Assembly (NCBI GenBank): GCA_030682655.1
Contig: JAUXNU010000045.1
Span: 9,909 to 73,908, forward strand
Length of the DNA: 64,000 bases
Reading direction: 5' to 3'
Source: Actinomycetota bacterium
GTDB taxonomy: Bacteria > Actinomycetota > Coriobacteriia > Anaerosomatales > JAUXNU01
Part shown: one piece after another, positions 41,294-50,980 of the stretch
How positions within the stretch are numbered: position 1 is the first letter of the stretch
Layout of the letters: every line of letters begins with the position of its first letter
Notes under the pieces: generated by a model
The model's input: the letters and a program-made list of their open reading frames with translations, nothing else
What the model was told of the DNA's origin: nothing
Databases searched by the model: none
Position numbers and translations under genes: made by a program

Positions 41294-41366
41294 GCTGCAA
41301 AGGGCGCACGCAAAGAAGCCCGCCGGTTTCCCGACGGGCTTCGAAGTCCTCTCGGTGGAGCCAAGG
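41294..41366. repeat. Distal direct repeat (att-like) of the tRNA-Ala island
   Basis: 73 nt aligning without gaps to 50846..50918 with 9 mismatches by hand count. The last 13 nt GGTGGAGCCAAGG are identical to the 3' end of tRNA-Ala. Contains the hairpin GAAGCCCGCCGG-TTTC-CCGACGGGCTTC (41315..41342). Confidence 0.8.
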
Positions 41367-41746: not shown

Positions 41747-42655
41747 CTACTCTTCGATGAAGAAGTCCTCGTCGAGCCGGTTCACGACGTACGTCGCGGC
41801 CTCCGTCACGCCGACGCCGTGATCAATCATCAGTTCGGCCAGTTGCTCGCCGTCGATCAGAACGATTCGCTTGTCGATGCGCCGAACGTAGTCACGCGCC
41901 TCGGCCGAGAACCTCGACGTGGTGATGAAGACACCTTTGCTCGCGCCCTGCCCCATGAGGCTGCCAGCGAAAGCCTGAATCTCCGGCCGTCCCACGTTGT
42001 TGGCCCAACGCTTCGCCTGGATGTAGACGACGTCGAGTCCGAGCTTGTCTTCCTTGATGATGCCGTCGATGCCATCGTCACCGCTGCGGCCGACGGCCTG
42101 ACCAGCGTCTGCAAGCGAGCCGCCGTAGCCCATCGTCACCAACAGCTTGACCACCAGCTGCTCGAAGAACCGAGGCGAAACCGCACCCACCCGCTCCATC
42201 ATCAGCTGCGCGAGATCCGAGCGCAGGGACTGGTAGCCGTTCTCCATGAGTTCTTCTGGAGTCTGGTCGCTCGCGTCCTCGCCCGCCGAGGAGTGCTCTG
42301 CCTGCGTGTGTGACCGATTCTTGAACTCTAGGAACTCCGGAAACTGCTTCAGAAATGCGTTGTTGATGGGTCCTGTGTGTGCAGCCAGCGTGTCCCGCCC
42401 GCGCTCAGTGATGCGCAGGATTCCCCTGGCAGGGCGCTCCACCAAGCCGGCTTGGCTCAGGTACGTCGCCGCCCATCCCGCGCGATTGTCGAAGGTTGCC
42501 TGACGGCCGCTTGGAAGAAGCTCGGCGCGGTCCGTCTCGGAGACACCGGTGGCAGTCGCCAGCGCATCCTTCGCGTCGGCCCATCTCCAATCGCCCCCGT
42601 CACCAAGCGACTTGAGCAGTGGCGACATCATCGACTGGTAGTCCGGAACGGTCAT
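41747..42655 (-). CDS. mrr: Mrr-like restriction endonuclease (Mrr_N winged helix + Mrr catalytic domain)
   Basis: N-terminus MTVPDYQSMMSPLLKSL..ATYLSQAGLVERPARGILRITERG. Catalytic core GRSGDDGIDGIIKEDKLGLDVVYIQAKRW (D..QxK). The ATG lies 1 nt after the stop of the upstream methyltransferase fusion. Confidence 0.88.
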   Translation of the reverse strand: MTVPDYQSMMSPLLKSLGDGGDWRWADAKDALATATGVSETDRAELLPSGRQATFDNRAGWAATYLSQAGLVERPARGILRITERGRDTLAAHTGPINNAFLKQFPEFLEFKNRSHTQAEHSSAGEDASDQTPEELMENGYQSLRSDLAQLMMERVGAVSPRFFEQLVVKLLVTMGYGGSLADAGQAVGRSGDDGIDGIIKEDKLGLDVVYIQAKRWANNVGRPEIQAFAGSLMGQGASKGVFITTSRFSAEARDYVRRIDKRIVLIDGEQLAELMIDHGVGVTEAATYVVNRLDEDFFIEE

Positions 42656-42656
42656 C

Positions 42657-45600
42657 CTACTTCCCCCACTCCCACACGTCGGCCTTCACGCACTCGTAGT
42701 TGGCGTCGAGCTCGGGCTGCATGAGCACGAGCGCGGCGATGCGACGCACCATCTCGGTGACGTAGCGCGCCTCCTCGGGCTTGAGGTCGCGGCCGAGGAG
42801 CGCGCGCTCGCGGTAGCTCAGCCACTTCTTGATGACCTGGTAGCCGCCAATCGTGTAGCGCCACACGTTGGCTGGCACGCAACGCCAGTACGCAACGTCG
42901 TTGAGGTAGATGTCGAAGCACGACTCGCCGAGGAGGGCGATCGCAGTTTCGGCCGACATGCCGAGCGGCTCCGCCTCCCGGGAAACCGCGGCGCACTCGT
43001 CGTCGGTGTAGGGCCGCTCGGTGAGCTTGCCGGTCGATGGCATGCAGACGCCACCCTGCCCAGCGACACCCCACCGAGCGGTCACAGCCAGATCTCCGGA
43101 ATCGAGCGAATCCCCCGTCGAAGAAGAGAGCGTGCCGACGCGAATCTGCGGCTGCGCGGCTGCCAGGCCAACCGGGGCATCAGGGTCTAGAAGCCGAATG
43201 ACCCTTTCCCCGAGTGCTGCAGAAGCCGCAAGCGCCTCTGAGTCCTTTGGCAGCGGGATTCGCGGCCAACCAGCTGCCACGCCGTCCGCGTTCGCCCCCA
43301 AGTAGGCGGGCGCAGCCATGACGGCGACGGCATGGGGCATCAGCGCAAAGCTCTCGCGCTGAGTACCGCCGTCCCCCAGGTAGCAGGCGACTCGTTCAGA
43401 AACGTTGGCCTGACCGGGCACTTGCTCGAATAGCGAGGTAGCGCTGCCCCTTGTCTGTAGCCACGGAAAGGCAGCGCCGTTGGGGCGAATGAAGTGATGG
43501 TCACAGGGCTCCGAGACGATGCAGAATGGTAGACCTTCGCGTGATCGCTCCGCCTTCGGGCGGGAGACCACGAAGACCTGACCGTCGGCGACAGCACCGA
43601 CGAGCGTGTCTCTGCGACGATCGAGCAGGCGGGCGCGATCTGTCCAGAAGACCCAGCGAGTGTCTAGAGGCCGGTATGCGTACCGGATGATGCGGCCCGC
43701 TTCGTCCCCGGCGCTGAGCAGGGCGTCCCGAACCTCACGGGCATTGAATTGTGGCGTGGCCGTAGCCAGCTGCGGAAGATGAGCACGAAGGTCGTCGAGC
43801 CCTCGCGAAGCGTCGAGGTACTCATCAATTCGACCCTGCAAAGTGCTCTGGTCGATCGCCACTAGGTCGATATCCCGAGCCGTAGTGATTCCCGGAGACC
43901 AGTCGGCGAAGAGGTCCTCCACGGTTGGCCACGACGTGAAATCCGGGTCGGTGGTTCTCGGCGAGAAGGCGAGCATTGGATCGGCGTCCGGGTCAAGGCG
44001 TTGCCAAGGCCTGCAGGGATCGCTGCTTTCCGAGGCGAGGTCGCTCAGTTTCGATGCACCCCAGAACTCGCGGTACATCACTTGGGCGGACTGCTTAGTG
44101 TCCCCTCCCTTGCGCGACAACACCGAGATCGAAGTCCCGATGCCGATCCCTTCCCTGTTCGCCGCCGTCGAAAAGACGCTCGGATCTGGACGCCCGTCCG
44201 GAGTCACCTTGCCTGTTCGAAACTTGTCTCCGTTGAGGCTATCGATCCAGATTGAGTCAAACACATCGAGAAACCGCTCTCGCATCCCGGTGTACGAGAA
44301 CCCGTCGAGCCACGAGTAGTTGGAGATCAGGCAGACAATGCCTTTCCCCATGTGTTGCACGATTTGGCGCTCGGCGATCCTGAAGAACCGGACGTACAGG
44401 TCATTGAGGCCCCTGCCCTCGGGTTTGGGAGCTCGCTTTGTGGTGCGGTAGGCATCCGACAGGTCTCGCTCCTCGTCAACCGCCATCCCGGCAAACCCGT
44501 TGTACGGTGGGTTTCCGATCACCACGAGGATCTGCTCTTCACGCTTGATGCGGTCCGCTGCGTCGCGCTCATGAGCGAACTCTGGGAACAGCAGGGTGGA
44601 GTGCATCTGACCCTCGCCGACCCGGCGATCCTTGGGCGATGCGACTTGGGCACCGTCGCCCCAGCCGGTTAGCGCGTTCGTTAGGTATATCGGTGCGCGC
44701 TCGCCGGCGTCACGCAGCGGCACGCCGAGTTCGGCCAGGAGGATGCCGAGCTGTAGGTGCGCCACGACGTATGGCGCGGGCATGATCTCGAAGCCGATGA
44801 CGCGACTCATCGCGGCGCGCTTCACGTCCTGGCGGGTGAGCGCATCAGCTCCCTTGGCCTGCAGCGTCTCGTCGATTTTGCGCAGCACCTCGACCAGGTA
44901 GGCGCCGGTGCCGCAGCACGGGTCGAGGACGACCACGCTCTCATCGGCGAGCCCGTCGGCGATGCCGAGCTCCTCGCGCAGGACGGTATCGACGCGAGCG
45001 ACCATGTACTTCACGACTTCGTCGGGCGTGTACCAGACGCCCAACTCCTTGCGCAGCTGTGGGTCGAACGCCTCGAGGAATGGTTCGTAGAAGTACTGGA
45101 CAGCGTGCTCCTCACGGAACTTCTCGAAGAAAGCGGCGCGATCGATGCGCCAGATGACCTCCTCGGCCCACTCGAGCACCTCGGAGATGCCAAGCGCGCC
45201 AAGCTGGCGAACGTCGGCGAACTGGCGGAAGAGCTCGTAGACCATCGGGACGTGCAGGGTCGCCGTCGCCGTCTCCCACTGGAAGCGCGACTCCCACGGG
45301 ATCGCCTGCGTGTGGTCGCGATCGCGCGCCCACAGGACCCAGCTCGCGAACATGCCGTAGAAGAGCGTCTGGACCAGCGTAGAGCGGAAGAAGTGGTCAC
45401 CCTTCTCGCCTTCGAACTTCAGGCCGAGCGCGTCTTCGAGCTGGCTGCGGAGCTGGTCGAGCGCGGGCAGCTCGTGGCGATGCTCCAGACGCAGACGTGC
45501 GGTGCGCGCATAGCTCGCAAGGAACCAGGCGAGGTCTTTGGGGTCGGAGAGCGGTGCGTTGTGGAGCAGGACTCGGCGGAGGAACTCCGTCAGGCCCTCG

Positions 45601-46103
45601 GCCGCGGTGTCGGCGAAGTTGCGGGGCTGGGTGACGCGAGCCCAGAAGGCGGCCTCACTCGTGGCGAGGCTGCAGGTCTCGAGCGTGCGCACGCCGGCGC
45701 CGGTGACGTTGCGGCCCACCAGCACGAAGTCGCGCAGGTTCGTGACCAGCACGAGGCCGTACCGCTCGACGTAGCGGGCGACCTGCTCGGACTCAGCAAC
45801 GGCGAATGCATCGTCGCTGGCGCCCTTGACCTCAATCGCGCCGCGGTTGGGAAGCTGGCCTTGGAGCGGGTTCTCGCCCAGCTCCCAGCCCTTGAGCTGC
45901 GGTGCCATGAACAGGCCACCGTCCGGGATTCCGCCGCCGGTGTTGCGCAGGTTGATGATGGCGCGGACCTTCGGCTTGAGGTGCTTGCCGACCTCATCGA
46001 GAAGGTTGGCGAGCGGCGCGTAGTAGCTGGTCTCGGCGACGCCTGCGCCTGATGCGCGGATGTCGCGTAGTTGCGTGAAATACGCCTCGACTGGTTCCCC
46101 CAC
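42657..46103 (-). CDS. Single-chain Type IIG-like restriction-modification protein (N-terminal PD-ExK-like domain + gamma-class N6-adenine methyltransferase + C-terminal specificity domain)
   Basis: N-terminus GIPDGGLF..GAIEVKG is PD..ExK-like. Methyltransferase motif I VLDPCCGTGAYL and motif IV VIGNPPYNGFAG. The C-terminus YRPLDTRWVFW and IGGYQVIKKWLSYR resembles the Type ISP/YeeA-type C-terminal specificity domain. Start set at GTG 46103, after GAGGGGG. Confidence 0.8.
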   Translation of the reverse strand: MGEPVEAYFTQLRDIRASGAGVAETSYYAPLANLLDEVGKHLKPKVRAIINLRNTGGGIPDGGLFMAPQLKGWELGENPLQGQLPNRGAIEVKGASDDAFAVAESEQVARYVERYGLVLVTNLRDFVLVGRNVTGAGVRTLETCSLATSEAAFWARVTQPRNFADTAAEGLTEFLRRVLLHNAPLSDPKDLAWFLASYARTARLRLEHRHELPALDQLRSQLEDALGLKFEGEKGDHFFRSTLVQTLFYGMFASWVLWARDRDHTQAIPWESRFQWETATATLHVPMVYELFRQFADVRQLGALGISEVLEWAEEVIWRIDRAAFFEKFREEHAVQYFYEPFLEAFDPQLRKELGVWYTPDEVVKYMVARVDTVLREELGIADGLADESVVVLDPCCGTGAYLVEVLRKIDETLQAKGADALTRQDVKRAAMSRVIGFEIMPAPYVVAHLQLGILLAELGVPLRDAGERAPIYLTNALTGWGDGAQVASPKDRRVGEGQMHSTLLFPEFAHERDAADRIKREEQILVVIGNPPYNGFAGMAVDEERDLSDAYRTTKRAPKPEGRGLNDLYVRFFRIAERQIVQHMGKGIVCLISNYSWLDGFSYTGMRERFLDVFDSIWIDSLNGDKFRTGKVTPDGRPDPSVFSTAANREGIGIGTSISVLSRKGGDTKQSAQVMYREFWGASKLSDLASESSDPCRPWQRLDPDADPMLAFSPRTTDPDFTSWPTVEDLFADWSPGITTARDIDLVAIDQSTLQGRIDEYLDASRGLDDLRAHLPQLATATPQFNAREVRDALLSAGDEAGRIIRYAYRPLDTRWVFWTDRARLLDRRRDTLVGAVADGQVFVVSRPKAERSREGLPFCIVSEPCDHHFIRPNGAAFPWLQTRGSATSLFEQVPGQANVSERVACYLGDGGTQRESFALMPHAVAVMAAPAYLGANADGVAAGWPRIPLPKDSEALAASAALGERVIRLLDPDAPVGLAAAQPQIRVGTLSSSTGDSLDSGDLAVTARWGVAGQGGVCMPSTGKLTERPYTDDECAAVSREAEPLGMSAETAIALLGESCFDIYLNDVAYWRCVPANVWRYTIGGYQVIKKWLSYRERALLGRDLKPEEARYVTEMVRRIAALVLMQPELDANYECVKADVWEWGK

Positions 46104-46277
46104 GCGTCTGCCCCCTCGGCATGCCAGAACGACCTCGAAGCCCAGCATACAAGAAGGATCCCTGGAGCACATGGGACAGGCGGCCAGATATAGTTGGCTG
46201 CTAGATAGTCACGTTCTGGAGGTGATTATCGTGACGCGGACTGCAACATCGCTCTGGGCGGCCGAGAGAACGACGAG

Positions 46278-47138
46278 CTAGGTGCTGGGCGGACTCAGAT
46301 TCCCGACGAACTGCCGAATCACAAGCACTGCCTCGTTCGCCGCTTGGGCCATCTCCGTCGCAGAGCCGCCCCGAGCCACGAGACTGGCGTAGTCCACAGC
46401 CCCGACCCGATTCGATTCCGAAAAATCCCCGGAGACTCGAATCAATGCGTCAGCAAGGAATGGGTCGCTCGCGACCGGACTCGCCGCAACCGCGACGGCC
46501 GCAGCCTCGGGCCCACCCGGCCACCATCGAAGCACGTAGACCAGGTCGTAGGCATCCTTCGGCTTGCGCCGGTCCAAATAGGCGTCCGCCTTCAGCGCCA
46601 CAAACGGCGCCAGATTCGCAACCTGGAAGTCCACTTCCGAGTAGGCTCCGTCAAGCAGCTGAAGGTCGCGCGTGATCGTGATGGAGTCCCTGAACGCAAG
46701 CTCAAGACCCCTCACGCACAGCAAACCCACGCCACCCGCACCGGCGGGTGGCGTGACCTTGGGTCGAAACACGGTTCCGGGCTCGACGTCTTCCCTGTCG
46801 CCGAGAAGTTCCAGAACGACGACATCACCGTCAACGGTGGCGGACCAGCGCCATGAGCTTCCGTCCACCCTCGAAAACCCGTTGTTCTTCAGGTTCGTCT
46901 CGAGTGTCGTGTATGCGCCCAGATCCTCCGCCTCGACCGCGAGTCTGAGAGCAACATCAACATCCGTCGAACCAACGTGGACCGGCTGGGCATAGCCGTC
47001 GCCCCGTACGAGGTATAGCGGGACGAGTCCGCCGACCAAACAGACCTTCTCTCTCCACGGTTGCCCGATTCCGCGCATCAGCGTGCCGAGAACCCTCTCG
47101 CAGCGCTTGGTTGCCTCACTGTTGTACTGCTCGACCAT
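46278..47138 (-). CDS. Minimal nucleotidyltransferase, AbiEii-like (module 1, 'B1')
   Basis: NTase signature VGGLVPLYL..VHVGSTDVDVAL (G[GS]..DxD). Later acidic strand VVVLELLGD. C-terminal KPKDAYDLVYVLRWWPGGP. Paralogous to 49866..50696. ATG 47138 lies 10 nt after the A1 stop, with GAAGGGGA as RBS. Confidence 0.7.
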   Translation of the reverse strand: MVEQYNSEATKRCERVLGTLMRGIGQPWREKVCLVGGLVPLYLVRGDGYAQPVHVGSTDVDVALRLAVEAEDLGAYTTLETNLKNNGFSRVDGSSWRWSATVDGDVVVLELLGDREDVEPGTVFRPKVTPPAGAGGVGLLCVRGLELAFRDSITITRDLQLLDGAYSEVDFQVANLAPFVALKADAYLDRRKPKDAYDLVYVLRWWPGGPEAAAVAVAASPVASDPFLADALIRVSGDFSESNRVGAVDYASLVARGGSATEMAQAANEAVLVIRQFVGNLSPPST

Positions 47139-47148
47139 GCAATCCCCT

Positions 47149-48168
47149 TCAGAAGCCGATGGAAGTTTCGCGCAGGTGCTCCGCCTGTTCCTCGCCGCGA
47201 GTCGGATCGGCAAGCGCGTCGGCGTAGATTCTGAACAAGGACACCCGGCGCACACCTCGGTCGTACTCCGACCCGACAAGGACGCCCTTGTGACCCCGCA
47301 GTACGACAAGGTTCGCACCGTCGTCGGCGGGCATCGCCCCCATCGCGCTCAAGACCACGTCGGCACGATGTGGAGTGGCCACCCAAGCCTCGAAGGTCCG
47401 CACCGCCGTGACGTGTGGAGCTACCATCTGGGCCGCAGCCACACCGGTGAAGTAAGCCTGAACGCCGTGGCCATCGTTAGTCAGATGTTGTGCCACCGTG
47501 CGCATGGTCTCTTCTGCACCGTTGTTGAGAAGGAAGCCCCGTGCGGTCACTTTGCGATCGGCCACTGCATCACGGGCGTACAGATCAAGCAGGCCGGCGG
47601 GATCCATCACGCGACGACGCGTCGCGGGTCCGCGGCCCGAACGCTCCAGCAGACCTGCGGCCTCAAGTGCGACGACCGTGTTCTGGGCAGCCCCGAGCGA
47701 CGCGCGACCCTCAGCCGCCAGGTCAGTGACCTTCCAGTCCCGTTTCGAGTCCGACAGCAGAGCGAGCGCAACGCCCCCCGCGGCACCGCTCAGGCTTAGA
47801 GACGCAGCGGGCCGTTCCGGTGGCAGCTCGGCTTCGTCCTGGAGCCGTATGAGAATACTCGGCGTCATCAGCCGCACCCTGATGTGACGGTCGTCCATGT
47901 AGTTCGCCTCAGCGGCATTCAATTCTGCGAGTGCCTTTTGGCTGAAATGGCGGCCTACGATCACGGGCACGCCCGACGAAGCCTTCGAACGGCCGAGCGC
48001 CAGCTCAACTTGCTCGGTCCTTCCCGATCCAGCATCGACCACCTGTAGCGGGACGTGGTAGTCGTAGTCGCCGTCGAGGTCCACGGTGTCGCCCACTGCA
48101 CGAAAGCGAGCGACCTCCGTTTGTGTCAGGCGGCGAGCAAGTTCAAGAGCTTGCGTCTCGGCATCCAT
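47149..48168 (-). CDS. Three-domain partner protein (module 1, 'A1'): degenerate nuclease-fold N-domain + wHTH + AbiEi-like C-domain
   Basis: Central wHTH ALALLSDSKRDWKVTDLAAEGRASLGAAQNTVVALEAAGLLE. C-terminus GANLVVL..RRVSLFRIYADAL..RGEEQAEHL. Paralogous to 48811..49872. ATG 48168 lies after GGAG; the track start at 48318 was trimmed. Confidence 0.65.
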   Translation of the reverse strand: MDAETQALELARRLTQTEVARFRAVGDTVDLDGDYDYHVPLQVVDAGSGRTEQVELALGRSKASSGVPVIVGRHFSQKALAELNAAEANYMDDRHIRVRLMTPSILIRLQDEAELPPERPAASLSLSGAAGGVALALLSDSKRDWKVTDLAAEGRASLGAAQNTVVALEAAGLLERSGRGPATRRRVMDPAGLLDLYARDAVADRKVTARGFLLNNGAEETMRTVAQHLTNDGHGVQAYFTGVAAAQMVAPHVTAVRTFEAWVATPHRADVVLSAMGAMPADDGANLVVLRGHKGVLVGSEYDRGVRRVSLFRIYADALADPTRGEEQAEHLRETSIGF

Positions 48169-48222
48169 TTTCACTCCATTGCCATTTTCATTGCGCACTG
48201 AAAATACCACATGGGTGAAAAT
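48165..48222. promoter_or_regulatory. Nested inverted repeats at the A1 start (candidate operator or RNA structure)
   Basis: Outer pair CCATTTTCAC (48165-74) / GTGAAAATcG (48215-24). Inner pair CATTTTCA (48183-90) / TGAAAATa (48199-206). On the coding strand the last half-site reads GAGTGAAAATG and runs into the start codon. Confidence 0.5.
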
Positions 48223-48642
48223 CGCGCCACGTGACCTCATCCCCTCCCGTCTCCTATCCGTCCGCCTGACCACAGCACAGATCGCCGTGGGCAACCGCAC
48301 CGCCTTCGACCTGTTCAAGGGGTCGAGAGCTCCGAACTTACGGTCGAGGGCAGTGAAGATCGAGTGCAGACCTTGAGAAGGAGAACGCAGGATAAGCAGA
48401 GCCGCTCAAGGCGCGGCGCTGTGGAGAGAACGCATCGCCGACTAAGCCGGTGAGCAGCGCAAGAGCCACTGAGCCTCACCCGTGAGCCACGAGCGGCTAT
48501 CGGCGTCACCGAGACGCCCCGAGCCGCTCTGGCGCCCGCACGGGAGCAGCTCTGAAAGAGGCCTTTTCGGATCCACGGAGCGACAAGTCCCTTGTGCACC
48601 GGTGCATAGCAGGCGGCGGTCAATCTGCCAAATGGAATCATG

Positions 48643-48689
48643 CTCTGTGTACACAACGTGCCTTCGAGAGGCAGATTGTGTACACAGAG
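48643..48689. promoter_or_regulatory. 13-bp inverted repeat containing two copies of the palindrome TGTGTACACA
   Basis: CTCTGTGTACACA (48643-55) ... TGTGTACACAGAG (48677-89), with a 21-nt spacer. Located in the divergent intergenic region ~120 bp upstream of A2. Confidence 0.4.
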
Positions 48690-48762
48690 CATCACTAGCG
48701 AACGCATCGGGAGCAAGGCTATCAACTCCAGACCGTCGTCGCCCGGTTTGACGGTTGGCCGG

Positions 48763-48816
48763 TTTCACTGATATGGTCGCTTTCACCGCCTGGTGAAAGG
48801 GGCCACTACAGTGAAA
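48763..48816. promoter_or_regulatory. Nested inverted repeats at the A2 start (candidate operator or RNA structure)
   Basis: Outer pair TTTCACTG (48763-70) / CAGTGAAA (48809-16). Inner pair CTTTCACC (48780-87) / GGTGAAAG (48792-99), spacer GCCT. The last half-site contains the GTG 48811 start. Confidence 0.5.
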
Positions 48817-49872
48817 GAACTCGAACTCATAGAACAGCTCCCCGAGGCCCTGCGGGCATGTCTCGAGAATGTGCCCAGGACCAGTATCGAAGCAACCCAG
48901 CGAGAGCAGCTTCTGACCAACGGCATGAGAGCCGATCTCATCGTCAGCCTCAGCATCTTGGGCCGCAAGCGAACGATGGTCATCGAGGCCAAAGGCAGTG
49001 GTCAACCGAAGCGAGCGAGAGAGGCGGCCGACCAGCTCAAACGCTTCCTGCTCGATGACCGCCTCAAAGGCGCCTATCCCGTGTTCGCCGCGCCCTATGT
49101 CTCGGAGGCCAGCGCAGCCATCTGTCAGGAGTCTCAGATTGGCTTCTTCGACTTGGCCGGCAACTGCCGCTTCGCGCTGGACGACATCTACGTAGAGAAG
49201 ACATCGGCCGACAATCCACTCAAGGAGAAGCGCAACGAGGCCTCTCTGTTCACTCCCAAGTCATCTCGGATTCTGCGAGTTCTCCTGAACGAGCCGCAAC
49301 GCGACTGGCAGGTTCAGCAGCTTTCCAAGGCGGCTGAGGTGAGCATCGGTCTGGCGTCAAAGATCAAGCGTCAGCTCGAGGACCGGGAGTGGATTGTCGT
49401 CGGCCAGAGCGGAATCCGCCTCACCCAGCCCGAGGCTATGCTGCAAGCATGGGCAACTGTCTATTCCTACAAGCAGAATCAAGTCCGCGAATACTACACG
49501 CTCGACGACCTGAGCGATGCCGAAACCACGATAGCCGACTGGTGTCGCGAGAGCGAAGTGGAGTACGCGCTCACTGGCTTCTCGGGAGCCCGGCTCTCCT
49601 CTCCCCGCGTTCGCTACAATCGCGCAAGTGTGTACGTGCGCTCGAGGATGGACAGCCTTACCGAGAACACGGGTCTCAAGCCAGTCGACACAGGAGGGAA
49701 TGTCCTTTTGCTTAAACCCTATGACGACGGCGTCTTCAACGGCGCGCGAGTCCATTATGAGATGCGAACCGTCTGCCCTGTTCAGCTCTACCTGGATCTG
49801 CAGTCCATGGCGGGACGGGGCGAAGAGGCTGCAGAGGAGATTCTGGCGAGGGAGCTGCGTCCCTCATGGTGA
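48811..49872 (+). CDS. Three-domain partner protein (module 2, 'A2'): PD-(D/E)xK-like N-domain + wHTH + AbiEi-like C-domain
   Basis: N-domain ADLIVSLSILGRKRTMVIEAKGSG (D..ExK) and FFDLAGN. wHTH SSRILRVLLNEPQRDWQVQQLSKAAEVSIGLASKIKRQLEDREWI. C-terminus GGNVLLL..RTVCPVQLYLDLQSMAGRGEEAAEEI. Start GTG 48811, after AAAGGGG; the track start is 48793. Confidence 0.7.
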   Translation: MKELELIEQLPEALRACLENVPRTSIEATQREQLLTNGMRADLIVSLSILGRKRTMVIEAKGSGQPKRAREAADQLKRFLLDDRLKGAYPVFAAPYVSEASAAICQESQIGFFDLAGNCRFALDDIYVEKTSADNPLKEKRNEASLFTPKSSRILRVLLNEPQRDWQVQQLSKAAEVSIGLASKIKRQLEDREWIVVGQSGIRLTQPEAMLQAWATVYSYKQNQVREYYTLDDLSDAETTIADWCRESEVEYALTGFSGARLSSPRVRYNRASVYVRSRMDSLTENTGLKPVDTGGNVLLLKPYDDGVFNGARVHYEMRTVCPVQLYLDLQSMAGRGEEAAEEILARELRPSW

Positions 49873-50696
49873 AGAACAGAACAGACTACCCGCCGGACGC
49901 AGTCGAGGCGGCAAGATCAGTCCTCGTGGAGCTGGTACATATCCTCGGAGAGTATCGCGACGACATGGTGATCGTTGGCGGATGGGTACCGCCGCTTCTG
50001 ATGCCCGACAGCACGGGGCACGTGGGCAGCACCGACGTCGACATCGCGCTGAACCACATGGCTGAGAACGACGAAGTCTACGCCAGGATCAGTGCATCAC
50101 TGCTGACCAACGGCTATGTGCAGCACGAGTCTCAACCATTCATCTGGTTTCGAGAGGTCTCTCTGGGCGGCGGCGTCGTGACCGTCGAGATCGACTTCCT
50201 CGCGGGTGAGTACGGCGGCACCGGGAAGCACCATCGAACACAGCGAGTCCAGGACCTCAAGCCGCGCAAGGCGCGCGGCGCCGATCTCCTCTTCAGTGAG
50301 ACGAGAGAACGCGAGATAGAGGGTCGGCTCCCCAGCGGCGCGTTGGACACCGTCTCGGTAAAGGTTGCCGGAGTCGTGTCATACCTCGTGATGAAGAGCT
50401 CGGCACTCGAGACGCGAATCAAAGATAAGGACGCCTACGACATCTGGTTCACGTTGGCCAACTACCCGGGTGGAATCCCAGCAGTGGTCGAGGAGTTCAC
50501 TCCGTTCGCGGACCACGGACTCGTGCGCGAAACCGTCTCGGTTCTGGAAGGTAAGTTCACCTCCCCTGAGCACTTCGGGCCAACCTCGGTTGCGGTGTTT
50601 CTTGAGCATGACGGCGATGCGGCGGTGCTCACCAAGCGCGACGCATTTGAGCGTGTTCAAGCGCTGCTTGACGGTCTGGGAGCGTTGCGGGACTAG
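49866..50696 (+). CDS. Minimal nucleotidyltransferase, AbiEii-like (module 2, 'B2')
   Basis: VGGWVPPLL..GHVGSTDVDIAL, VVTVEIDFLAGE, IKDKDAYDIWFTLANYPGG. The ATG overlaps the A2 stop (ATGGTGA). Confidence 0.72.
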   Translation: MVKNRTDYPPDAVEAARSVLVELVHILGEYRDDMVIVGGWVPPLLMPDSTGHVGSTDVDIALNHMAENDEVYARISASLLTNGYVQHESQPFIWFREVSLGGGVVTVEIDFLAGEYGGTGKHHRTQRVQDLKPRKARGADLLFSETREREIEGRLPSGALDTVSVKVAGVVSYLVMKSSALETRIKDKDAYDIWFTLANYPGGIPAVVEEFTPFADHGLVRETVSVLEGKFTSPEHFGPTSVAVFLEHDGDAAVLTKRDAFERVQALLDGLGALRD

Positions 50697-50845: not shown

Positions 50846-50918
50846 GCCGCAAAGGGCGTATGCGAAGAAGCCCGCCGGTATCCCGACGGGCTTCGGAGTT
50901 CTTTTGGTGGAGCCAAGG
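50846..50918. repeat. Proximal direct repeat (att-like) overlapping the 3' end of tRNA-Ala
   Basis: Partner of 41294..41366. Includes the hairpin GAAGCCCGCCGG-TATC-CCGACGGGCTTC (50867..50894) and the tRNA 3' terminus. Confidence 0.8.
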
Positions 50919-50980
50919 GGGATCGAACCCCTGACCTCATGGCTGCCAGCCATGCGCTCTCCCAGCTGAGCTATGGCCCC
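50905..50980 (-). tRNA. tRNA-Ala (anticodon GGC)
   Basis: Hand-folded cloverleaf. Acceptor GGGGCCA/TGGCTCC with the G3:U70 Ala identity pair, anticodon stem CATGG/CCATG with loop CTGGCAG, T arm AGGGG-TTCGATC-CCCCT, encoded CCA. Confidence 0.9.

Follow-up and report, generated by a model that had tools for sequence, protein, structure and literature searches.

Twin AbiE-like gene pairs of the COG4861-COG4849 branch in a defence island of an uncultured actinomycetote, with a predicted nuclease-fold domain in the putative antitoxins and a conserved, putative four-box operator

The AbiEi-AbiEii pairs of Streptococcus agalactiae and Lactococcus (COG5340-COG2253), classified as Type IV and recently proposed to be Type VII toxin-antitoxin (TA) systems, are bicistronic: the antitoxin gene comes first and encodes a winged helix-turn-helix (wHTH) domain at its N-terminus and a C-terminal, inactive nucleotidyltransferase-like antitoxicity domain, the toxin carries the DUF1814 motifs I-IV, and inverted repeats in the promoter allow autorepression. 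Furthermore, COG4861 and COG4849 have been reported as another highly associated AbiE-like gene pair (STRING score 99%), in which the antitoxin family COG4861 has no detectable sequence similarity to COG5340 (PMC3985639, Dy et al., 2014). In terms of Pfam families, PF09952 is equivalent to COG4861, and PF08843 encompasses COG2253 and COG4849 (PMC7251935). The pair Rv0837c-Rv0836c (MenA2-MenT2) of Mycobacterium tuberculosis is such a DUF1814-COG4861 pair (PMC3968373; PMC7450476). Here we describe two divergent gene pairs, module 1 (A1-B1) and module 2 (A2-B2), found in a stretch of 64,000 nucleotides (hereafter, the window) of contig JAUXNU010000045.1, assembly GCA_030682655.1, from an uncultured Actinomycetota bacterium. 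The genes and their predicted domains are as follows.

46278-47138, minus strand: B1, 286 aa, DUF1814/AbiEii-type nucleotidyltransferase (COG4849-like), predicted toxin of module 1
47149-48168, minus strand: A1, 339 aa, predicted three-domain AbiEi_2-like antitoxin/repressor of module 1
~47152-47598, minus strand: C-terminal antitoxin domain of A1
~47599-47796, minus strand: wHTH of A1
~47839-48168, minus strand: N-terminal domain of A1, a predicted degenerate nuclease fold
48811-49872, plus strand: A2, 353 aa, predicted three-domain AbiEi_2 (PF09952/COG4861) antitoxin/repressor of module 2
48811-49215, plus strand: N-terminal domain of A2, predicted NucS-like PD-(D/E)xK fold
48934-48936, 48985-48987 and 48991-48993, plus strand: codons of the A2 triad residues D42, E59 and K61
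~49246-49425, plus strand: wHTH of A2
~49426-49869, plus strand: AbiEi_2 domain of A2, predicted pseudo-nucleotidyltransferase
49866-50696, plus strand: B2, 276 aa, DUF1814/AbiEii-type nucleotidyltransferase (COG4849-like), predicted toxin of module 2
50028-50030, plus strand: codon of S55 of B2

Both modules have the bicistronic AbiE-type layout, with the antitoxin gene directly 5' of the toxin gene. In module 1, 10 nt (aggggattgc) separate the stop codon of A1 (TGA) from the ATG of B1, and in module 2 the stop of A2 and the start of B2 share the sequence ATGGTGA (49866-49872, a 7-nt overlap); the start codons of the divergent genes A1 and A2 are 642 bp apart. A preliminary description of this DNA, made from the letters alone, had listed the four genes, the 10-nt gap, the ATGGTGA overlap and a divergent gap of ~640 bp, all of which are present. 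Open reading frames (ORFs) extended to upstream starts (TTG 48318, GTG 47318 and GTG 48793; 389, 346 and 359 aa, respectively) were rejected given that the homologue alignments begin at the shorter starts.

We propose, with a probability of roughly three in four, that each module is a bicistronic TA or abortive-infection pair of the AbiE superfamily that belongs to the COG4861-COG4849 branch, i.e., is of the MenA2-MenT2 type, and functions in the following way. By analogy with MenT1, MenT3, MenT4 and AbiEii, B would add nucleotides to the 3' ends of tRNAs, halting translation. The wHTH of A would bind a four-box TTTCA operator that overlaps the -10 box, the ribosome-binding site (RBS) and the start codon of A, and this binding would self-limit transcription of the operon. 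The C-terminal AbiEi_2 domain of A would neutralise B by binding and, to judge from the work on AbiEi-AbiEii and MenA-MenT, would probably provoke autophosphorylation of B on S55 (B2) or S57 (B1). The N-terminal domain of A2 would, at about even odds, give A a second role as a sensor or effector.

The assignment of the A proteins starts from the C-terminal ~143-145 residues of A2, which match the Pfam family AbiEi_2 (PF09952) with 55.8 bits against a cut-off of 21. A1 has no Pfam match; its family is tied to PF09952 by one PF09952 protein among its relatives and by a profile-profile alignment in which residues 36-337 of the A1 family match residues 51-349 of the A2 family (hhalign probability 99.6%, E 8e-24). 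By direct comparison with BLASTP, A1 and A2 are 25% identical across residues 115-332 (E 2e-12), that is, over the wHTH and the C-terminal part, and the N-terminal domains do not align. Because the profile-profile alignment starts at residue 51 of A2 and residue 36 of A1, the homology reaches into the N-terminal domain. In the motif alignments of the two families (42 sequences for A2 and 29 for A1), the RDW..V block of the wHTH, the G.N motif and the C-terminal RGEE.AE block are invariant. No NCBIfam family exists for A1, B1, A2 or B2, and no AbiEi_1, AbiEi_3 or AbiEi_4 match in Pfam and no AbiEi match in PADLOC was found for A1 or A2; the PADLOC search (PADLOC-DB v2) gave weak AbiEii matches to B1 and B2. 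Searches of the PDB by sequence with A2 and B2 yielded nothing significant, and no homologue of A2 was found in phage genomes.

Unlike canonical AbiEi, a two-domain protein that starts with the wHTH, the A proteins carry a central wHTH (residues ~146-205 in A2) behind a nuclease-fold domain of ~135 aa. A2 has more than 2,683 relatives; among those listed, the length is ~352 aa and the query coverage 92-100% (79% in one case), so the N-terminal domain is included, and all but one of the best 120 listed carry PF09952. A profile of the N-terminal domain alone matched 2,298 cluster representatives; among the 150 matches listed, the domain starts at or before residue 15 in all but a handful (the latest at residue 55), in proteins of up to ~350-450 aa, the shorter ones being probably fragments. 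Because the relatives of A2 are near full-length and the N-terminal domain sits at the start of the protein, the three-domain layout is the normal form of the family and not an unusual fusion; these alignments indicate that an N-terminal domain followed by a wHTH and AbiEi_2 is the standard full-length form of the PF09952/COG4861 family. In a scan of one genome per species, at least 545 A2-type loci were detected, spanning Actinomycetota, Thermodesulfobacteriota, Nitrospirota, Chloroflexota, Planctomycetota, Verrucomicrobiota, Spirochaetota and other groups. The A1 family is far smaller, with 63 relatives, mostly from Coriobacteriia-like metagenome-assembled genomes (MAGs) and all named "hypothetical".

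In the B proteins, the nucleotidyltransferase signature is conserved throughout. Aligned along nearly their entire length, B1 and B2 show 25% identity (E 8e-20). B1 matches AbiEii (PF08843) with 26.5 bits against a cut-off of 22.5, and 23 of the 34 aligned members of the B family match PF08843 too; B2 has 829 relatives of ~275 aa, many of which carry PF08843. All four DUF1814 motifs, namely I (hGG/S), II (DxD), III (centred on K) and IV (+DxxD), are invariant in the 34 B sequences, where the invariant columns read VGG..P, HVGSTDVD, K..A...R and KDAYD. In B2, the respective residues are G38-G39, H52, G54-S55-x-D57-x-D59, K177..A180...R184 and K188-D189..D192, and in B1, G36-G37, S57-x-D59-x-D61, K..A...R and KDAYD. 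Motif III, as read from the alignment, is of the COG4849 type (KLxAaxxR; LKADAYLDR in B1, MKSSALETR in B2), with K177, A180 and R184 invariant; the DUF1814 motifs, including the COG4849-type K..A...R and the KDxxD pentad, have been defined previously (PMC3985639, Dy et al., 2014). In the PDB, the B profile best matches 3h37, a tRNA nucleotidyltransferase of the CCA-adding type, at a non-significant E-value of 0.79; in that alignment, VGGwVP.LL...DxD from the N-terminal region of B2 (49866-50100) faces VGGFVRDLL...DID.

A serine two residues ahead of the first catalytic aspartate (S55 in B2, S57 in B1) is invariant in the B proteins. In MenT1, the phosphoacceptor T39 precedes D41 by the same two residues (PMC11375011) and is the structural equivalent of T65 in AbiEii (bioRxiv 2026.01.19.700257). 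Given that the S-x-D-x-D geometry of B is that of T39/D41 in MenT1, we propose that this serine is the phosphoacceptor. MenT1 (of the pair MenA1-MenT1, Rv0078B-Rv0078A) resembles B1 and B2 also in being a DUF1814 toxin of the COG4849 type; the pair differs in that MenA1 is a protein of 68 aa without a wHTH or a nuclease domain, and the B profile fails to reach MenT1 by sequence.

The central and C-terminal domains of A are compatible with the roles proposed above. The central domains of A1 and A2 give Foldseek matches to winged-helix folds of the MarR, ArsR and IclR type. The model of A2 further matches ANT(2'')-Ia and MenT1 over 158-191 aligned columns, and these matches were assigned to the C-terminal domain by alignment length, the Foldseek output carrying no query residue range. 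The AbiEi_2 domain of A2 (49426-49869) retains the TGFSGA glycine motif and lacks DxD, and AbiEi's C-terminal domain has been described as an inactivated nucleotidyltransferase fold (PMC13621843). The predicted structure of the AbiEi_2 domain of A2 thus looks like a dead nucleotidyltransferase fold, kin to the fold of the toxin itself. Accordingly, A2 has the make-up of an AbiEi antitoxin, a wHTH plus an inactive nucleotidyltransferase-like C-terminal domain, and A1 has it only by way of the hhalign match to the A2 family.

The two genes of the module stay together in most genomes, B being located directly downstream of A in ~90% of the loci that could be evaluated. In a census of 80 A2-type genome loci, 72 of which have enough sequence downstream of A for a judgement, A and B are both intact and adjacent in 58; A is intact and B broken or absent in 11 (L021, L024, L036, L041, L043, L047, L048, L061, L066, L071 and L072 in our numbering of related loci), A is broken and B intact in one, and both are broken in two. 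Broken remnants of B are found downstream of A in 11 loci, in 9 of which A is intact and in 2 of which A is also broken. B, although the shorter gene, decays far more often than A (11 vs 1), as would be anticipated for a pair with a harmful B and a protective A. In all the contexts examined (L001, L003, L004, L005 and L007), a B1-type gene lies directly downstream of the A1-type gene. Among homologues encoded on RefSeq plasmids, the two products are named "type IV toxin-antitoxin system AbiEi family antitoxin" and "nucleotidyl transferase AbiEii/AbiGii toxin family protein".

Taken together, the Pfam matches and the invariant B motifs uphold the preliminary description in its reading of the modules as AbiE/MenAT-like pairs in which a minimal DUF1814 nucleotidyltransferase comes after a wHTH protein; so do the ~25% identities in its claim that A1 and A2, as well as B1 and B2, are paralogues. 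The A and B motifs that it quoted are real and correspond to invariant columns of the homologue alignments, and the co-occurrence of A and B across genomes, which it had left for checking, is conserved. Its suggestion of a possibly uncatalogued, unusual architecture has to be given up: this is the COG4861-COG4849 pair known since 2014, it is named in RefSeq, and the three-domain A protein is the norm in the family. On whether A and B match standard AbiEi and DUF1814 families at full length, the outcome is divided, with PF09952 covering the C-terminal part of A2 and leaving its N-terminal domain uncovered.

The closest described system, MenA2-MenT2, shares with the modules of the window, as judged by family and published description, the antitoxin family (COG4861, i.e., the PF09952 family matched by A2), a DUF1814 nucleotidyltransferase partner, and an antitoxin gene that lies upstream of the toxin gene and is "much larger". 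It differs in that MenT2 was non-toxic in the published tests, that A1-B1 represents a divergent sub-family with an A side that Pfam does not recognise, and that the window proteins come from an uncultured Actinomycetota genome. Another related pair is encoded on plasmid pBSY17_2 of Sphingobium sp. RAC03 (WP_083217230.1 and WP_069067151.1): its three-domain A protein is 37.6% identical, retains D and ExK, and is preceded by a four-box operator, B follows directly with a 4-nt overlap, and the annotation gives the first product as AbiEi family antitoxin and the second as AbiEii/AbiGii toxin family protein. Here, in contrast to the window, a single module, with no second copy, resides on a conjugative plasmid of an alphaproteobacterium.

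The N-terminal domain of A2 is covered by no Pfam, NCBIfam or PADLOC model. In the AlphaFold2 model of A2 (predicted local distance difference test score, pLDDT, 92.2), the first 115 residues form a helix, three strands, a helix, a strand, a helix and a strand (H3-17, E25-34, E40-49, E52-60, H66-79, E89-94; an alpha-beta-beta-beta-alpha-beta core), with D42 opening strand 2, E59-x-K61 closing strand 3 and Q75 in the next helix, an arrangement canonical for PD-(D/E)xK folds. In the PDB, Foldseek matched the A2 model best to NucS/EndoMS (E 3.5e-4; template modelling score, TM, ~0.34 on the target), a match attributed to this domain, and then to AF1548, PaqCI, Card1/Can2, MspJI and BamHI. A profile of the domain aligns its ExK..Q..AP segment with residues 168-227 of NucS (E 0.26, not significant). 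The domain resembles NucS/EndoMS (PDB 2vld and 5gke) in the core fold, with D in strand 2 and ExK in strand 3, and in the aligned ExK..Q..(V/F)AP segment; it differs in sequence (~13% identity), lacks the N-terminal domain and the PCNA-binding tail of NucS, and is followed in the same protein by a wHTH and an antitoxin domain. Across 80 relatives of A2 that are only ~41-45% identical overall, D42 is present in 78, E59 in 76 and K61 in 75 (94-98%), and D114 and N118 are kept in all 80. The model and the conserved residues make a NucS-like PD-(D/E)xK fold well supported for the N-terminal domain of A2, and the conservation of the triad argues for a genuine metal or catalytic site. Because D-ExK is intact and conserved across phyla, the domain probably binds or cuts nucleic acid.

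The model of A1 (pLDDT 87.6) has the same order of elements. The positions aligned to E59 and K61 of A2 are V44 and A46, and the 29-sequence alignment of the A1 family contains no conserved acidic or lysine triad; D92, the counterpart of D114 of A2, is invariant in both families although ExK is not. By its predicted structure, the N-terminal domain of A1 is a degenerate copy that has kept the fold and lost the catalytic residues, which indicates that the domain also has a non-catalytic role. Thus, the restriction-endonuclease-like D...ExK pattern that had been assigned at the outset to the N-terminal domains of both A proteins is present in A2 (D42/E59/K61, in a predicted PD-(D/E)xK fold) and absent from A1. 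No description of a nuclease fold in AbiEi, COG4861 or DUF1814 antitoxins was found in the literature searched, which leaves out most subscription papers, so that this absence is not proof. Non-conservative changes of the D/E/K triad occur in 3 of 11 orphan A genes vs 5 of 69 paired ones, a weak hint that the nuclease site may matter only while B is present.

The region between the two A genes contains the following putative regulatory elements.

48169-48220, unstranded: putative operator of module 1, a four-box palindrome, TTTCAC-N11-TTTCAT-N6-CTGAAA-N11-GTGAAA
48640-48692, unstranded: inverted repeat with 24-nt arms, each with the palindrome TGTGTACACA, ~120-170 nt 5' of A2
48748-48777, plus strand: sigma-70-like promoter of module 2, a promoter-like site with TTGACG, an 18-nt spacer and TG-TATGGT
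48763-48816, unstranded: putative operator of module 2, a four-box palindrome, TTTCAC-N12-TTTCAC-N6-GTGAAA-N12-GTGAAA

The operator of module 1 abuts the ATG of A1 and covers its Shine-Dalgarno sequence, and in module 2 the boxes flank the -10 element and the last one contains the GTG start codon of A2. The two operators have in common the half-site and the 12-bp inner spacing (17-12-17 in module 1, 18-12-18 in module 2), and 6 of the 15 TTTCAC sites of the window are located at the two A starts; the TTTCAC-N12-TTTCAC unit, found on both strands upstream of A2, has an expected number of 0.00 in shuffles. The boxes of the module 1 operator are kept in L001, L003, L004 and L005 with variable spacers; in L001, the closest related genome, the boxes are conserved and the spacers changed. 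Most of the related loci have a TTGAC box in the corresponding position. When 84 non-redundant loci (642 kb) were searched, the four-box pattern TTTCA-N11-14-TTTCA-N5-9-TGAAA-N11-14-TGAAA was found just 5' of A in 65 of them, in many phyla. Since this operator is conserved and overlaps the promoter, the RBS and the start codon, there is strong comparative evidence that A would repress its own operon, presumably by binding to the boxes. Promoter inverted repeats are shared with AbiEi-AbiEii; the sequence and layout of the operator are different.

Many loci of the A2 family have two tandem four-box operators ~75 bp apart, located ~75-165 nt 5' of the A start (L020, L021, L023, L027, L029, L034, L038, L044, L046, L048, L050 and L052), and the window has one per module. 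The inverted repeat at 48640-48692 is not of the TTTCA type; it is kept in L001 with a compensatory change (left arm C>T, right arm G>A), and may be a second operator or an RNA hairpin. No Rfam family was found in the A1-A2 intergenic region (the only Rfam match being the tRNA), and a six-frame search with the A and B profiles detected no remnant of an A or B gene or pseudogene in the 640-bp gap. This region differs by ~390 bp between the two closest genomes: the segments ~48223-48519 and ~48542-48637 of the window (~297 and 96 bp) are absent from L001, where the gap is 263 bp.

Both modules reside in a small island, in agreement with the earlier placement of the locus in a defence island.

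41294-41366, unstranded: left att-like direct repeat, 73 nt, 88% identical to 50846-50918, remnant of the 3' end of tRNA-Ala and its downstream hairpin
41747-42655, minus strand: Mrr-type Type IV restriction endonuclease (Pfam Mrr_N and Mrr_cat; PADLOC mREase_IV, E 5e-91)
42657-46172, minus strand: Type IIG/Type ISP-like restriction-modification (RM) enzyme (Pfam Type_ISP_C, N6_Mtase and Eco57I; PADLOC REase_MTase_IIG, E 3e-82)
50846-50918, unstranded: right copy of the att-like direct repeat, which contains the 3' end of tRNA-Ala and its downstream hairpin
50905-50980, minus strand: tRNA-Ala (GGC), the probable integration site of the island

The 73-nt repeats bound a 9.5-kb island that encompasses the Mrr and Type IIG/ISP enzymes, which adjoin the modules, and both modules themselves; there is no integrase in the island, and leuS is found beyond one of its ends and thiD/thiC beyond the other. 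The window encodes the Type IIG/ISP enzyme at full length (1171 aa), and in the related MAG just a C-terminal portion of 706 aa is called (L001 9989-12109).

The divergent twin pair is also present in that MAG, with 89-93% identity, and in another Actinomycetota MAG (L014) an A2 gene product of 66% identity is encoded beside a far more diverged, truncated A1-like gene. Otherwise, 78 of the 80 genome loci have A2-B2 without a twin, and A1-B1 likewise has none in 4 of its 5 distinct contexts; by these comparisons, twins are rare, and either module is also found by itself. In L003 (1-9900), a lone pair 90% identical to A1-B1 of the window has a tyrosine integrase, an HTH_36 protein and small ORFs as neighbours and a HEPN/MNT pair in the vicinity, a context that suggests that the A1-B1 module travels on an integrative element. 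In L005 (1-11000), the S and R genes of a Type I RM system are separated by an inserted A1-B1 module, which adjoins Mrr and a SMODS/E2 pair resembling a cyclic oligonucleotide-based antiphage signalling system (CBASS), and in L007 it is alone in a TA cluster. A recent tandem duplication as the origin of the twins was rejected, given the 25% identity and the occurrence of each module alone elsewhere. Most likely, the two modules are separate cassettes that were acquired or retained together in the tRNA-Ala-associated island; cross-repression between them through the shared half-site is possible.

Several observations weigh against the assignment of the modules and of their domains that we favour. 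The PF08843 match of B1 spans only part of the model, B2 has no Pfam match of its own, and the B profile does not reach the MenT or AbiEii structures among the PDB sequences. The one tested nucleotidyltransferase with a COG4861 partner, MenT2, was non-toxic in M. smegmatis or E. coli (PMC7450476), so that toxin activity of B is not assured, and MenT4 is not phosphorylated, i.e., autophosphorylation is not universal in the superfamily. The nuclease claim is made from a predicted fold, a Foldseek E-value that is modest, and residue conservation, and the model of A1 retrieved only wHTH proteins, and no nuclease, in Foldseek.

Four other explanations have to be considered. It is conceivable, although doubtful, that these are ordinary AbiE pairs in which the N-terminal domain is only structural or serves oligomerisation, for example by joining two wHTH dimers on the operator, with no catalysis or sensing. 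The A1 family, which lacks ExK and still keeps the domain, the operator and the B partner, implies that the domain can serve without catalysis, four half-sites imply a higher-order assembly, and the aspartate D114/D92 is invariant in both families even where ExK is not; the near-invariance of D42, E59 and K61 among relatives of such low overall identity is, however, hard to explain without a metal or catalytic site. That the roles are reversed or shared, with the PD-(D/E)xK domain of A as the effector that cuts phage or host DNA and B as a protein that regulates or modifies A or A's target instead of being a toxin in its own right, is very unlikely. Such a division would agree with the lack of toxicity of MenT2, with the 11 loci where A is intact and B broken or lost, and with the conservation of the catalytic residues of the nuclease, but B keeps every catalytic motif of the proven DUF1814 toxins and decays more often than A, as is typical of a toxin, A1 retains its B partner without having the nuclease residues, and the excess of triad changes in orphan A genes hints, weakly, at coupling of A and B rather than independence.

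The twins might also form a functional unit, in which A1 (with a dead nuclease) and A2 (with a live one) cross-regulate through the TTTCAC half-sites or mixed oligomers and make up a two-toxin circuit. This appears unlikely: the common half-site and inner spacing, the conservation of the divergent pair in the related MAG and its recurrence in L014 with a far more diverged, truncated A1-like gene are in its favour, but the modules are found alone far more often, the recognition helices of A1 and A2 differ (SIGLASKIKRQL vs SLGAAQNTVVAL), the outer spacings of the operators are 17 vs 18 bp, and the intergenic region varies strongly between the two closest genomes. The possibility that the genes are decaying remnants without a current function, to which the absence of an integrase from the island and the fragmentary Type IIG gene of the related genome might point, is barely credible in view of four full-length ORFs with all the family-invariant residues, translational coupling, intact operators and a promoter-like site.

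Beyond the bicistronic TA or abortive-infection pairs that we favour, a bolder, decidedly unlikely, scenario is that the NucS-like domain of the COG4861 "antitoxins" would be an active DNA sensor or cutter that couples the detection of phage DNA to the release of the toxin, or a second effector, and that here A2 with a live and A1 with a dead nuclease domain, sharing an operator half-site, would form a cross-regulated two-toxin circuit. If true, this scenario could also explain why MenT2 is inert in classical toxin tests.

The locus itself is ordinary: from a small defence island, it adds two members to a TA/Abi family that is very common and has been named before. Two features that hold across the family should be useful for the study of AbiE and MenAT systems, namely, the N-terminal domain with its predicted PD-(D/E)xK fold and the conserved four-box TTTCA operator. 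To our knowledge, no COG4861 antitoxin has ever been characterised, and the predicted nuclease domain and the operator lend themselves to direct and inexpensive experiments on a branch in which MenA2-MenT2, the only member tested, showed no phenotype. Furthermore, because the PADLOC models miss the A proteins, COG4861-type pairs have probably been missed or under-counted in the defence censuses that use PADLOC.

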